Below are positions 1,335-6,237 of a stretch of DNA of 64,000 nucleotides, one piece after another. The notes below the pieces were generated by a model. It saw only the letters and a program-made list of their open reading frames with translations, searched no databases and was not told the DNA's origin. Made by a program: the position numbers and the translations under genes. Where the stretch lies: NCBI GenBank assembly GCA_013286945.1, contig JABDET010000001.1, positions 4,590 to 68,589 on the forward strand. Reading direction: 5' to 3'. Each line of letters starts with the position of its first letter. Position 1 is the stretch's first letter. This DNA is from Candidatus Melainabacteria bacterium. GTDB taxonomy: Bacteria > Vulcanimicrobiota > JABDET01.

Positions 1335-1658
1335 TTAGAACGAAGCAAAGGTGATCGACTGAGCATCGGTCAGATAGGCCGGCGAACCATCAGCTGTATT
1401 GAACATTGGCGGAGAGCTTTCGTGGAGCCTCGGCTGCGCGATGAGCAACACCAGATCTTCACTCAAATTCTCGCGTGGGATCTCTACAGTCATTGATATT
1501 GGCTCAGACGGGGGGAGATCCACGTGGTGGATTTGAGCGCTTTTGGATGACCCTATTTCATACACGGTTCTGGATGACTTCGAGACTTGGGAAAATGTGG
1601 TGGCTGAAAATGACATAAGAACAAGCCCAAGAACAAACCTAAACCATAAATTTCTCAT
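1335..1658 (-). CDS. Hypothetical exported protein
   Basis: 107-aa ORF with a clear N-terminal signal-peptide-like hydrophobic segment (MRNLWFRFVLGLVLMSFSATTFSQ). No recognisable domain. Convergent with glyA. Confidence 0.4.
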   Translation of the reverse strand: MRNLWFRFVLGLVLMSFSATTFSQVSKSSRTVYEIGSSKSAQIHHVDLPPSEPISMTVEIPRENLSEDLVLLIAQPRLHESSPPMFNTADGSPAYLTDAQSITFASF

Positions 1659-1862
1659 AGCACACCTCTGTTATCATTGTACCCTTATCTTAGGTGCTTT
1701 GGACACCTTCTTTGGCCATTTTGTCCATCCATGGAGGCGAATCGTTCCAGTATTCCTTGACTTGTGAGCCGATCGGGGCAGTGCAATTACGGCGACTGTG
1801 CTTCATTATGCTTTTCTTAGGACGAGACGATATACGAAGAGAGGAGTAAGCTAACCATTCCA

Positions 1863-3056: not shown

Positions 3057-4768
3057 TTCTTTTCATCAAAAAAAATCGAAAGCAGTTCCTCTCTGAGTGA
3101 TTCAGGCATCGGAAGCACCGAGAGTAATTCCAGATGAGTATCGAGAAACGTAGAAGTCTCTTCAGAGTTGAGTTTTTTTAACACCCCAAGAAGGTCTTTC
3201 CAAAGGGTTGGCTCCAAAGGCCGAAGTTCAAATGCGCGCCTAAAGAAATCGTACGCTTTTTTTAGATTTCCCTCTGCTTTCAGAGCATTGCCCATCGCTT
3301 TGAGCATCCCCCCGTTATTTTCGTTGAGGGAAAGTCCATCCCTAAATTGCGCGATGGCCCCTTTGAAATCGTTTCGACGTGCAAGAAGTTCGCCGACGAA
3401 GAAGAGGGTCTCCTCGGAAAATAAGAGTGCTTGCCGCATCGGAAGATCCTGTGGTCCGTCACGATAGGTCTTATACCAGCGGAGTGCAAAATCGGAGTAA
3501 GGCATGCTTACCGGCAAAGATCTCGGATCGGGTCGGTGGCCTCCCTTGAGCAAGGCAGCGCATTTCAAGAACCAGATCATGGCTTGATTGTCATCGGACA
3601 GGTAGTAAAAGTGCCGCCCCAGATTGAAGGGAATAATGGGATCATTCGGTGCCAGCGCGTGTGCAGCCATGAAGAGGGTCTCTATGTTTCGGAATGCTTC
3701 GAGTGGGGCGTTGACGCGCCTGGCCTCGGCAAGCTTAATCACAGCGTGATTGTTGAGAGGGTATGCTTCTTTCGGCTGCTCGCTAACTTCCTGAGGGGCT
3801 GCTTGTCCAACAAAGCAGCTGTTCAAAAAAAATGCCGCGTCCTTCACATCAAAGAGTTTTTTGCGAAGCTTTTTCCCGCTTGGCAACCGACGAAGGCGTT
3901 CGAGAAGTCCATTGATTCTCTTTGCATAAGTCAGCGTCTTGACCTGCTTTCGCGCATTGTCGATGATCTTCTCACGCTCTTCATCGTGCGTGATGTAGTG
4001 TTGTAGGAGTTCCTCCAGATTCTGTTCATTATAAAGCACGCAATGAACTCGGTCCTTGTAAAACTCTCTCACTTCGAGATTTTCTTCCTCCATGAACAGC
4101 AAAGAACTGCATCCTGGAGCCTCGTAAGCTCGCATATTCATCTCACCACGAATCGACTTATTAAAGACAATTTTAGATCGATTCATGAGCTCGGCGTAAG
4201 CTTTTCCATAAATATTGCTGGTGAGCATGATTTTGTATTTGTTTCTTAATTGGGCAATTCGGTAAACCAGGCGGTTTCGCTCGGCGTGAATTTCCGGATG
4301 GATATTCCCAATGAAAACGATGTCATACTCTTTTTCTTTCGCTGGGGGCAAATCGTATTGTTCAGGAATGTAGGAAAACATCGGAAAATATTCTGCGCGA
4401 ACACCCCAGTGTGAGAGAAACTCTACCCCCATTTTGTCAGTAAAGTTGTAATCAATGGCGTGCTGCGCGGCGAGGATCTGGACTGTACTCAGGTTCCAAT
4501 CTCCGATGAGTGCCACCACTATTCCATCGAATTTCTCCAGGCCGCGTGGAATGATCCAGTATTCGGGGCTGTAAAGGATGACCATCTCCGGACAAAACCC
4601 GCCCAACTCTTGAATGATGTTTTCGAAGTCCATGCCGGGGGTATAGAGAACGTCCCCACCAACATTCGAGAAAATCCGCACTTCATCCCCGAGTCCTCTC
4701 CAGAGCACGTAGTGATGTTCGAACGCGTTGGGTTCTGTTGCATGGCCAAATCCTACGAGGAGTTTCAT
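3053..4768 (-). CDS. CgeB-like / family-1-like glycosyltransferase fused to C-terminal TPR repeats
   Basis: The N-terminal 330 aa resemble the CgeB/Glyco_trans_1_2-type glycosyltransferase fold (IVFIGN...RAYEAPGCSSLL). The C-terminal 200 aa have TPR-like degenerate 34-aa helical repeats. The 5' end overlaps the stop of the next GT by 4 nt (ATGA), so the two are likely co-transcribed. Confidence 0.7.
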   Translation of the reverse strand: MKLLVGFGHATEPNAFEHHYVLWRGLGDEVRIFSNVGGDVLYTPGMDFENIIQELGGFCPEMVILYSPEYWIIPRGLEKFDGIVVALIGDWNLSTVQILAAQHAIDYNFTDKMGVEFLSHWGVRAEYFPMFSYIPEQYDLPPAKEKEYDIVFIGNIHPEIHAERNRLVYRIAQLRNKYKIMLTSNIYGKAYAELMNRSKIVFNKSIRGEMNMRAYEAPGCSSLLFMEEENLEVREFYKDRVHCVLYNEQNLEELLQHYITHDEEREKIIDNARKQVKTLTYAKRINGLLERLRRLPSGKKLRKKLFDVKDAAFFLNSCFVGQAAPQEVSEQPKEAYPLNNHAVIKLAEARRVNAPLEAFRNIETLFMAAHALAPNDPIIPFNLGRHFYYLSDDNQAMIWFLKCAALLKGGHRPDPRSLPVSMPYSDFALRWYKTYRDGPQDLPMRQALLFSEETLFFVGELLARRNDFKGAIAQFRDGLSLNENNGGMLKAMGNALKAEGNLKKAYDFFRRAFELRPLEPTLWKDLLGVLKKLNSEETSTFLDTHLELLSVLPMPESLREELLSIFFDEKN

Positions 4769-6237
4769 ATTTGAACGAAAGAAGCAAGCTTTTGTTGAGC
4801 AAGCGTGTGGAAAGGGGAAGCTTTCAAAGCCTCTTGCAGAAAGGCCCTTGCGGTTTCATCTTCATGTCTTTCTTGGGCTAATAGGGCAAGACCATACAGG
4901 GCTTCGCCTTTCCATCCCGGAATTTTGGCTAATTCTCGAAACATCGACTCTGCGTCTCCAGGAGACTTGCGGATGGCTTGATGCGCTTGTTGTGCTTTCC
5001 AACTTGGTTTTCCTTCGCTGAGCTTTGTTAGATCAGGGGGGTGAAGATTGTACTTTTCCACGAGGCTCTTGGTAGGAACTTTCCGCTGCACAACTAGCTT
5101 CTCACCTGGCGCCGCTTTCAGCGCGAAAAGACGCTCCTCAATCATTCGAGCCGGGCGTTCCCAAGTCCATTCCGAAATTATTTCTTGGGCAGCCAAGAGT
5201 CCAACATGGCGGGCTTCTTCGTAGTTTTCAAAAATGTTACGTAGAATTTTCCGGAGGGCTGAAAGGTCCGGTTCTGCCCAGAATCGGTGATCAAGGGTTG
5301 AAAGACCATCATCGGTTTGCAGAATTTCCCAGGTATTGCTTAGCTTTTTTTGCTCGAGGTAAAGCGCGGATGGTATCAGGTAAGAATTGGCTGCATGGCA
5401 AAAATCTAACGTGGCGCCAAATCCGGTGGTGATTGTGGGGAGTCCACACGCCATGGCTTCCAAAACTGGAAGGCAAAAACCTTCGCCTCTGTACGGTTGC
5501 ACGTACGCCTGGCATGCGCGGTAGAGTTCTGGGATCTCGCTTGGAGACAAGGGGTCATCAAGAAAGACAATTTTAGGAACGTCTTGACGATCGGCAATGG
5601 CCTGCACACGTCTTCGATCCACAGATTGGTAGAAAACATCTCGAAGAACCAGACACACATCTTCGTCTGGCCTGAATTCTTGCATGTAAGCATTGATGAG
5701 GACATCGTATCCTTTTCGGTGGATCAACCCGCCAACGAAAAGAAAGCGAAACGATTTTTCGGTTTTAAATTCAAGTTTGGGTCCGTCGGGACGAAAAATT
5801 TGAGGATCGATTCCATGAGGGATGACACACACGCGGTTTTCGGGCACCCCACTCCACACATAGCTGTCACGGACAAAGTTGCTCGTGGCCCAAATTTCGC
5901 GAACATCTTCCATGGCTTTTAACCACGCGATGGGGATACTTCCGTATTCCCAAGGTTGGATGACGATGAGCTCTCCTTGTCGAGGTTTCTCCCAATTGGG
6001 GGGCCAGGTGAAACGAACGTGAAAATCAACCTTGGGAAGTCGTCGGTTCAGGAACGGAACAATCGGCTTCAGGCGAGCGTCTACATTTTTCAGAGATTTA
6101 GGTTTTCCACTCTTCGGGAGAAGGGATAACGAGATCCGATCCTGATTAAGGTGAAGAGCAATTTCTTCATTAACACGAGCGAAGCTGTGGGGTACGAAGA
6201 ATTCTCCTTCCCAGACAACCCCAATCCTATCCCCCAT
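4765..6237 (-). CDS. Glycosyltransferase family 4 (GT-B, group 1) with C-terminal TPR-like tail
   Basis: Canonical GT4 signature EGFCLPVLEAMACGLPTITT (E-x7-E region). FLFVGG Rossmann motif present. C-terminal helical TPR-like segment. Translationally coupled to the downstream GT. Confidence 0.8.
   Translation of the reverse strand: MGDRIGVVWEGEFFVPHSFARVNEEIALHLNQDRISLSLLPKSGKPKSLKNVDARLKPIVPFLNRRLPKVDFHVRFTWPPNWEKPRQGELIVIQPWEYGSIPIAWLKAMEDVREIWATSNFVRDSYVWSGVPENRVCVIPHGIDPQIFRPDGPKLEFKTEKSFRFLFVGGLIHRKGYDVLINAYMQEFRPDEDVCLVLRDVFYQSVDRRRVQAIADRQDVPKIVFLDDPLSPSEIPELYRACQAYVQPYRGEGFCLPVLEAMACGLPTITTGFGATLDFCHAANSYLIPSALYLEQKKLSNTWEILQTDDGLSTLDHRFWAEPDLSALRKILRNIFENYEEARHVGLLAAQEIISEWTWERPARMIEERLFALKAAPGEKLVVQRKVPTKSLVEKYNLHPPDLTKLSEGKPSWKAQQAHQAIRKSPGDAESMFRELAKIPGWKGEALYGLALLAQERHEDETARAFLQEALKASPFHTLAQQKLASFVQI

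Follow-up and report, generated by a model that had tools for sequence, protein, structure and literature searches.

A radical SAM enzyme with a predicted twitch-type auxiliary domain, from a family of cell-surface glycan clusters, beside a glycosyltransferase pair

Introduction

Near the start of a 64,000-nucleotide stretch of DNA from Candidatus Melainabacteria bacterium (contig JABDET010000001.1 of assembly GCA_013286945.1; the whole stretch is called the window below) a gene for a radical S-adenosylmethionine (SAM) enzyme meets, end to end, the genes for two glycosyltransferases: a CgeB-type enzyme with C-terminal tetratricopeptide repeats (TPRs), designated GT-TPR, and a GT4-type enzyme designated GT4_490. 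A small open reading frame (ORF) for a secreted-type protein lies on the other side. An initial annotation, made from the sequence, had read this arrangement as a pathway for modification of a protein or peptide. The question raised by the locus is whether the radical SAM enzyme acts on a peptide or on a sugar, and whether it and its neighbors work together.

The reading favored here, with a probability of about 0.58, is that of a carbohydrate-directed radical SAM enzyme with a twitch domain, whose sugar product is used or carried by the adjacent GT4_490/GT-TPR pair. A sugar rather than a peptide is most likely what the enzyme modifies, because its family normally sits in gene clusters for cell-surface sugar polymers. 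The proposed peptide or protein modification pathway is left unsupported: the auxiliary domain is predicted to be of the twitch type, the neighbors of homologous genes encode Wzm/Wzt and nucleoside diphosphate (NDP)-sugar enzymes, and no small ORF is conserved beside them.

Results

The auxiliary cysteines fit a twitch domain

All four ORFs named in the initial annotation are present (Table 1), and profile searches of the kind it had called for recover both expected domains in the radical SAM enzyme: Pfam Radical_SAM (PF04055) matches with 51.8 bits (cut-off 29.5) and Pfam SPASM with 27.7 bits (cut-off 21.5), the latter match covering only the first 53 of the 67 model positions. The CX3CX2C motif that had been noticed is found as C39-x3-C43-x2-C46, with all three cysteines invariant in an alignment of the enzyme with 35 homologues (alignment A1, the basis of all cysteine-conservation counts given here), and the G-x-VYPCC motif is found as GRVYPCC at residues 266–272. 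The latter belongs to a two-part auxiliary motif in which C253, C271, C346 and C349 do not vary, with C272 conserved to at least 90%. A CX2CX5CX3C motif is absent; a second auxiliary cluster is therefore not supported.

A twitch domain is a shortened version of the SPASM fold that holds one auxiliary cluster on three or four cysteines (four in BtrN), whereas SPASM maturases hold two auxiliary clusters on seven or eight (PMC9012708). The seven or eight C-terminal cysteines of the two-cluster subclass, CX2CX5CX3C among them, are not seen in the family; what is seen are four invariant cysteines with BtrN-like spacing, C-x17-C(C) ... C-x2-C, and alignment of the family profile with the BtrN twitch segment. 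Judged by this count and spacing, the auxiliary domain fits a BtrN-like twitch with a single predicted cluster rather than a full two-cluster SPASM domain. The earlier label of a twitch/SPASM-type domain holds as far as the Pfam SPASM match goes, and not for full SPASM, since only 4–5 auxiliary cysteines are conserved.

When the family profile was compared with all PDB sequences, the C-terminal region aligned only with BtrN among solved auxiliary domains, and the core aligned best with BlsE; a PDB search with the enzyme's own sequence retrieved generic core matches only, of which the best was GDGT-MAS (E = 2.7e-10). An AlphaFold (AF2) model of the enzyme (predicted local distance difference test (pLDDT) 80.5, predicted TM-score (pTM) 0.84) has DesII, BlsE, SuiB, GDGT-MAS, viperin and BtrN as Foldseek neighbors, at TM-scores of about 0.4–0.57 and identities of 13–22%. 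Family members are about 400–430 residues long and share a conserved N-terminal helix. No named NCBIfam family is reached by the enzyme, the best match (98.7 bits, cut-off 380) being restricted to the core region. The peptide-maturase models score 30–51 bits against cut-offs of 265–650, and these as well as the heme, PQQ, MoaA, Tes, HpnH and viperin models were rejected as far under their cut-offs.

The family normally sits in cell-surface glycan clusters

The 355 homologues detected include none more than 50% identical to the enzyme and none with a functional name; many are from Acidobacteriota/Pyrinomonadaceae, with scattered members in Chloroflexota, Nitrospirota and others. Five independent homologue loci with Pfam annotation (within L002–L007) are glycan clusters in every case (5/5). 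There the enzyme is accompanied by a Wzm/Wzt ABC exporter or Wzx-type flippase, by NTP_transferase proteins and SDR 4,6-dehydratases/epimerases, by TylC3-type C-methyltransferases (Methyltransf_13/14) and CmcI-type methyltransferases, and by dTDP-sugar isomerases, DegT aminotransferases, an N-formyltransferase, and glycosyltransferases of the GT2 and GT4 types. Reference proteins from these annotated loci were then used to score, by blastp, 80 loci of the family from species-representative genomes (the window organism's own genome is not among the representatives scanned).

A close set comprises the 27 reference-genome loci whose homologue is at least 39% identical, with the neighborhood taken as 10 kb. 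NDP-sugar genes and/or Wzm/Wzt occur in 21 of the 27, and Wzm, Wzt and sugar-nucleotide genes occur together in one cluster in 17. Wzt lies immediately upstream on the same strand in 11/27, a nucleotidyltransferase immediately downstream on the same strand in 13/27, and both in 10/27; the same Wzt-radical SAM-nucleotidyltransferase order is found in four more distant loci (30–31% identity), giving 14 sampled genomes in total. The canonical order is Wzm-Wzt-radical SAM-nucleotidyltransferase-SDR-C-methyltransferase-RmlC. A DegT-type aminotransferase is present in 8/27; DesII, for comparison, works downstream of an aminotransferase of this type. As a control for promiscuous references, the nucleotidyltransferase, Wzm and Wzt references matched none of 32 other loci (L088–L119, that is 29 GT-TPR loci and three loci of small-ORF homologues).

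These neighborhoods run contrary to a peptide pathway. The gaps in the Wzt-radical SAM-nucleotidyltransferase order are only 0–50 bp, and therefore leave no space for a precursor-peptide gene. A conserved short ORF, which the initial annotation had suggested looking for, does not accompany the family: a homologue of the small ORF is present in 0/80 loci. Neither adjacency to a precursor peptide, often with an RRE domain, or to a sulfatase nor a match to a curated maturase model, the marks of maturases for RiPPs (peptides that are ribosomally synthesized and then post-translationally modified) and of anSME, was found for the enzyme, and the observation that no sulfatase or recognized RiPP precursor lies nearby is borne out by the Pfam scan of the window ORFs. 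Comparative evidence of this kind describes an uncharacterized, unnamed family whose normal place is within gene clusters for sugar polymers of the cell surface.

In a distance tree the window enzyme falls inside the sugar-operon clade; its branch is long and lies close to L028 and to L030–L032 from Chloroflexota, with sugar-operon loci on either side. On the nearest branches the neighbors are GT2 and GT4 genes directly upstream (L030 and L032, where NDP-sugar genes are lacking), DUF2206 (L024) and PIG-L (L016). A TARA Oceans locus (L003) has a gene for a 560-residue, all-TPR protein directly upstream of the radical SAM gene on the same strand (8209–9891); it is the only other adjacency of TPRs and radical SAM enzyme among the sampled loci of the family, and its TPR protein has no blastp homology to GT-TPR.

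The glycosyltransferases form a separable module

The CgeB-like and GT4 identities proposed for the two glycosyltransferases stand, both with Pfam matches above cut-off: Glyco_trans_1_2 (PF13524, CgeB-type) at 61 bits for GT-TPR (domain at about nucleotides 3902–4339) and Glycos_transf_1 (PF00534) at 64.3 bits for GT4_490. That both proteins end in TPRs is clear for GT-TPR only, where TPR_2/TPR_14 match residues of about 451–547 (nucleotides of about 3128–3418; TPR_2 32.8 bits, cut-off 27) and the repeats resemble PDB consensus TPRs and the TPR region of OGT (E about 1e-8), the best non-designed PDB match. The tail of GT4_490 is weakly TPR-like and sub-threshold: TPR_14 reaches 19.9 bits (E = 0.0011; cut-off 23.5) only in a separate scan of the C-terminal 111 residues, and an orthologue in L088 has a similar helical tail. 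The two genes overlap as described, by 4 bp (4765–4768) on the minus strand, and therefore form one operon.

The closest full-length homologues of GT-TPR (43% identity) are in L088–L090, from two assemblies, where the gene is paired convergently with a full-length GT4_490 orthologue (48% identity) and lies among genes for GT2s, a sulfotransferase, FdtA and methyltransferases, with no radical SAM gene. Scanning metagenomes with the family alignment of GT-TPR added 25 further loci, in which GT4_490-like and SDR genes recur. In L102/L103 one ORF of about 1570 codons without a stop (7700–12412) matches both proteins; it suggests a fusion of GT-TPR and GT4_490 in some metagenomic lineages, and such a fusion would speak for joint action of the two. 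GT-TPR and GT4_490 constitute a conserved module, which is found without any radical SAM enzyme.

Linkage between the two halves of the locus is not conserved. No GT-TPR homologue is found in any of the 80 radical SAM loci, where a GT4_490-like gene appears once, 8 kb away (L025), and no radical SAM gene of the window type lies within 10 kb in any of the 29 GT-TPR loci. The conserved linkage on which the initial annotation had made its reading depend is thus missing (0/80 and 0/29), and the radical SAM enzyme and the glycosyltransferase pair are therefore two separable glycan modules whose juxtaposition is lineage-specific. The enzyme is not, on the other hand, a housekeeping or AmmeMemoRadiSam protein, the other outcome that had been considered adverse: the AmmeMemoRadiSam model is not among its top 25 NCBIfam matches. 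A pathway shared by the two modules is plausible because the radical SAM family is itself glycan-associated. In another locus (L091, 1472–14590) a sugar cluster holds, besides the gene of a 691-residue GT-TPR homologue, two other radical SAM genes and those for SDRs, a GD_AH dehydratase, an HldE-like kinase/nucleotidyltransferase, a HAD protein and a thiamine diphosphate (TPP) enzyme; one of the radical SAM proteins there, a radical SAM/SPASM protein of 355 residues, resembles the window enzyme in its N-terminal core only.

The small ORF is a real gene of a rare family

The small signal-peptide protein of the initial annotation is real and has a Sec-signal-like N-terminus, while no source called it at full length. 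The protein contains no cysteine. A 15-billion-protein collection in which all four neighbors are present lacks its full-length sequence, the Logan gene calls have no gene at this position, and one gene caller gives only a 52-residue product (P0157) from the internal Met56. Its codon-usage score of 0.001 per codon is typical of shadow ORFs and below that of all 30 confident genes (mean 0.153, minimum 0.071). An exhaustive phmmer search of 1.84 billion representatives nevertheless recovered two full-length homologues, P0158 and P0159 (106 and 101 residues; 45% and 43% identity; E = 1.6e-14 and 1e-12), which share with it a positively charged, hydrophobic N-terminus and motifs along the whole length. 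Judged by these homologues and the shared signal-like N-terminus, the small ORF is a real gene of a rare, unnamed family of apparently secreted type, with only three representatives at 50% clustering among the 1.84 billion proteins.

The homologues lie beside a periplasmic binding protein (L092) and beside an SDR and a GT2 (L093/L094), and there is no gene of the radical SAM family at L092–L094; an unannotated 397-residue protein beside the homologue in L093 was considered as a radical SAM enzyme and rejected, having no blastp match. The small ORF is transcribed divergently from a glycan-related gene both in the window (the radical SAM gene) and in L093 (an SDR epimerase/dehydratase). The idea of a Cys/Ser-rich precursor near the radical SAM gene finds no backing in a protein that lacks cysteine and has no conserved link to the enzyme, and the small ORF is probably not part of the radical SAM chemistry; no observation favors the small protein as the enzyme's substrate.

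Locus layout and the wider window

The radical SAM gene is convergent with the glycosyltransferase genes, as had been noted, the 3' ends sharing 4 bp (3053–3056), and it is transcribed divergently from the small ORF (Table 1). An Rfam scan of positions 1–8000 detected neither a riboswitch nor any other RNA within the 537-bp spacer between glyA and the radical SAM gene, and a scan of 1200–3300 for promoters and terminators gave no signal exceeding shuffled expectation.

Table 1. Features of the radical SAM/glycosyltransferase locus (positions in the window)
Feature	Position	Strand	Basis or remark
Serine hydroxymethyltransferase (glyA)	30-1325		upstream of small ORF/radical SAM gene
Small ORF, 107 aa	1335-1658	-	ORF list; no Pfam, NCBIfam or PADLOC match
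Radical SAM enzyme, 397 aa	1863-3056	+	Pfam Radical_SAM and SPASM above cut-off
CX3CX2C motif (C39/C43/C46; CNLSCPAC)	1977..2000	+	predicted to bind SAM-cleaving [4Fe-4S] cluster; invariant in A1
Auxiliary motif, first half (C253-x17-C271-C272, within ...GRVYPCC)	2619..2678	+	A1; aligns with BtrN C...VLPC twitch segment
Auxiliary motif, second half (C346-x2-C349)	2898..2909	+	both Cys invariant in A1
CgeB-type glycosyltransferase with C-terminal TPRs (GT-TPR), 571 aa	3053-4768	-	Pfam Glyco_trans_1_2, TPR
GT4 glycosyltransferase (GT4_490), 490 aa	4765-6237	-	Pfam Glycos_transf_1
AI-2E family transporter	6357-7544		beyond glycosyltransferase genes

The organism is diderm, as seen from TonB/ExbB, a TonB-dependent receptor, RND efflux with OEP, OmpA, two-partner secretion and type IV pilins. 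The closest relatives of the window leucyl-tRNA synthetase (LeuRS) are 70–75% identical, and relatives at 57–62% are from Zixibacteria, Armatimonadota, Planctomycetota, Latescibacteria and Eremiobacterota. The host represents a deep lineage with poor sampling and is no acidobacterium; movement of the radical SAM gene between phyla along with glycan genes would agree with this. PADLOC detects no defense system in the radical SAM enzyme and its neighbors, with pVip matches of at most 38 bits to the radical SAM core only.

Several other loci of the window involve glycans, TPRs or radical SAM partners. Two of the three AmmeMemoRadiSam components, AMMECR1 (44051–44581) and an overlapping LigB/Memo-like gene (44578–45717), lie on the minus strand at 44051–45717, with Maf and PriA as flanking genes and without an adjoining radical SAM gene. 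At 57620–63858 (minus strand) the order is prepilin peptidase, DegT aminotransferase, GT4, Wzy_C with C-terminal TPRs, and two N_methyl type IV pilin-like proteins, which looks like a pilin O-glycosylation cluster (PilO/TfpO/PglL-type); its Wzy_C (O-antigen-ligase-like)-TPR protein gives this genome a second glycan enzyme with fused TPRs. A 1097-residue Ser/Thr protein kinase has a very long array of TPRs fused to it (47831–51124, minus strand), a two-partner secretion pair at 31614–38788 (minus strand) consists of a 1839-residue TpsA with an N-terminal TPS domain and a ShlB/FhaC-type TpsB, and a 527-residue protein with no family match (7732–9315, plus strand) has an internal duplication of about 50 residues (PYSLVSNDEEEYLVQGMAYFNNSEATNLFLKKYDPQLHQYIENRF, PYSLVSTNEQDYLVQGLRFFKNSEVTNVFLKKSDPKLHHYIENRF).

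Discussion

The window locus is an ordinary glycan-gene neighborhood, and its radical SAM enzyme, itself uncharacterized, probably belongs among the twitch enzymes of sugar pathways. Support for a place beside the sugar-modifying DesII, BlsE and BtrN is indirect, coming from operon context and from weak similarity of structure or profile. Radical SAM steps on sugars are well documented in antibiotic pathways (BtrN, DesII, BlsE, AprD4). BtrN, the 2-deoxy-scyllo-inosamine dehydrogenase of butirosin biosynthesis (PDB ID: 4M7T), likewise has a C-terminal twitch domain, with one auxiliary [4Fe-4S] cluster on four cysteines as predicted for the window enzyme, shares the spacing C-x17/18-C ... C-x2-C, and acts on a carbohydrate-like substrate. 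However, the identity to BtrN is about 14% and the full-sequence E-value with the family profile only 5e-6; BtrN has 250 residues and comes from an aminoglycoside antibiotic cluster, whereas the present family belongs to cell-surface glycan operons and differs from BtrN in a longer C-terminus, the N-terminal helix and the extra near-invariant C272. BlsE (cytosylglucuronate decarboxylase, blasticidin S; PDB ID: 7VOB) and DesII (TDP-4-amino-4,6-dideoxyglucose deaminase; PDB ID: 8HZV) rank first among the structural matches (E = 3.5e-9 to 6e-9) and act on nucleotide- or nucleoside-linked sugars, but at TM-scores of only 0.49–0.54 and 13–19% identity; the NCBIfam BlsE model gives 32.8 bits against a cut-off of 400, and both enzymes come from antibiotic pathways and not from Wzm/Wzt operons. 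The SPASM maturases (anSME, SuiB, PqqE, MftC, sactisynthases) belong to the same superfamily and have the first half of the auxiliary motif in common with the window enzyme, but are encoded beside a precursor peptide or sulfatase, unlike this family.

The conserved home of the family is the Wzm/Wzt O-polysaccharide cluster with a dTDP-6-deoxyhexose pathway (RmlA/RmlB/RmlC, TylC3-type), although the window copy is without all of those neighbors. In the searchable literature no radical SAM step was found in any described Rml-type pathway, and in the accessible literature no characterized radical SAM enzyme was found for O-antigen, NDP-sugar or Wzm/Wzt-type polysaccharide operons; two literature matches from Xanthomonas, considered as precedent, concern unrelated radical SAM genes. 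GT-TPR, for its part, resembles OGT (GT41), FlmG and the CgeB-family glycosyltransferases in joining a GT-B-type catalytic domain to TPRs. The TPRs of OGT and of the flagellin glycosyltransferase FlmG recruit protein substrates. GT-TPR differs in that its TPRs are C-terminal and few and its catalytic domain is Glyco_trans_1_2, not GT41, and the orthologous loci are polysaccharide-like with no evident protein target.

The proposed mechanism comprises two separable glycan-biosynthesis modules side by side, the radical SAM enzyme on one hand and GT4_490 with GT-TPR on the other. Reductive cleavage of SAM at the CX3CX2C cluster would yield a 5'-deoxyadenosyl radical, which would take a hydrogen from a sugar C–H of an NDP-hexose/6-deoxyhexose or of a nascent glycan, with the predicted Cys4-ligated auxiliary [4Fe-4S] cluster accepting an electron; the outcome may be a keto-sugar, by two-electron oxidation of the BtrN type, or else epimerization, dehydration or deamination (cf. 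BtrN, BlsE, DesII). The co-translated GT4 and the CgeB-type glycosyltransferase, with its C-terminal TPR scaffold, would act in the cytoplasm to assemble a glycan or a glycoconjugate. In the window lineage the radical SAM gene would have become detached from the usual Wzm/Wzt-RmlA-type operon and placed beside the glycosyltransferase pair, for which its product probably supplies or tailors a sugar. The domains, the pattern of cysteines, the genomic associations of the family and the separable nature of the modules are what the data show; the class of substrate, the type of reaction and the coupling to the adjacent glycosyltransferases are what we infer. A broader proposal is tentative: the family may perform, on an NDP-6-deoxyhexose or a nascent O-polysaccharide, a radical chemistry undescribed in cell-surface glycan biosynthesis, re-deployed in the window for a TPR-scaffolded glycosyltransferase pair and possibly for protein glycosylation.

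Several observations weigh against a carbohydrate-directed enzyme coupled to its neighbors. The adjacency with GT-TPR is seen only in the window, and since the radical SAM gene converges on the glycosyltransferase genes the two have no common transcript. No nucleotidyltransferase, dehydratase or Wzm/Wzt is present among the window ORFs scanned, so that the locus itself is not a Wzm/Wzt-dependent glycan cluster and the usual partners of the enzyme must be elsewhere in the genome or absent; L028, on a nearby branch of the tree, has no glycan genes at all. No member of the family has been characterized, and the nearest solved structures are 13–22% identical. The Foldseek matches of the predicted model, finally, confirm the fold class and do not discriminate the substrate: DesII, BlsE, SuiB and viperin all lie at TM-scores of around 0.5, and SuiB, a peptide maturase, does not fall behind DesII and BlsE.

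Part of this evidence speaks for a sugar enzyme whose adjacency to the glycosyltransferases is incidental, its partners being elsewhere, for instance in an off-window Wzm/Wzt cluster or in the DegT-GT4-Wzy_C cluster at 58.4–62.6 kb. The missing linkage in 80 and 29 loci, the convergent genes, the glycosyltransferase pair of L088–L090 that does without a radical SAM enzyme, and the very presence of a second glycan cluster in the window all agree with it. Yet a chance landing beside two glycosyltransferases is less likely for a family nearly always found among glycan genes, in a window that is otherwise glycan-poor, and the enzymes of L030 and L032 also lie directly beside GT2/GT4 genes without NDP-sugar genes; incidental adjacency is thus unlikely, if the most serious of the rivals. 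It is rather improbable that the enzyme is a SPASM-type maturase, RiPP- or anSME-like, of the small exported protein or of a TPR-recruited protein that the glycosyltransferases then glycosylate. The Pfam SPASM match above cut-off, the presence of SuiB, anSME, SkfB and EpeE among the structural matches, the role of TPRs as protein-interaction modules with the OGT region as best natural match, and the small ORF, real and adjacent, are what such a maturase would draw on; anSME substrates also carry signal peptides. But cysteines are conserved for only one auxiliary cluster, the small protein has none, its homologues and the family never meet (0/80 loci, and no radical SAM gene at the homologue loci), the canonical gene abuts Wzt and the nucleotidyltransferase with no precursor space, maturase models stay far under cut-off, and a TPR protein adjoins the enzyme only in L003 among the sampled family loci.

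Action on a lipid or cofactor (Tes/GDGT-MAS-like, HpnH-like, or W/Mo cofactor maturation) is improbable as well. GDGT-MAS is the best PDB sequence match, a tungsten-cofactor radical SAM maturase (TIGR04317) is the best NCBIfam match, with Tes and HpnH weaker, and many members of the family come from Acidobacteriota; these matches are, however, confined to the generic radical SAM core (about residues 27–217), score far under cut-off (98.7 against 380; 36.9 against 450), and stand against a genomic context of glycan genes, not of lipid or cofactor genes. Very remote is the case for the missing AmmeMemoRadiSam partner of the AMMECR1/Memo pair (44.0–45.7 kb) or for a viperin-like defense enzyme. 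That pair does lack an adjacent radical SAM gene, but it lies 41 kb from the enzyme, whose NCBIfam matches were noted above and whose family neighbors are glycan genes, not AMMECR1/Memo; viperin structures occur among the Foldseek matches and PADLOC gives a weak pVip match (37.9 bits), but to the radical SAM core only and with no other defense component found. Both the lipid (Tes/GDGT-MAS) and the AmmeMemoRadiSam readings were accordingly rejected on score and genomic context.

The carbohydrate-directed reading carries a lesson for annotation, namely that a radical SAM domain with a Pfam SPASM match does not make a peptide maturase without a count of the auxiliary cysteines and a check of the conserved neighbors. 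The canonical Wzm-Wzt-radical SAM-RmlA-type operon of soil Acidobacteriota is more interesting than the window locus itself. The family is a tractable candidate for new radical chemistry on sugars, and might explain unusual O-antigen-like sugars of uncultured soil bacteria.

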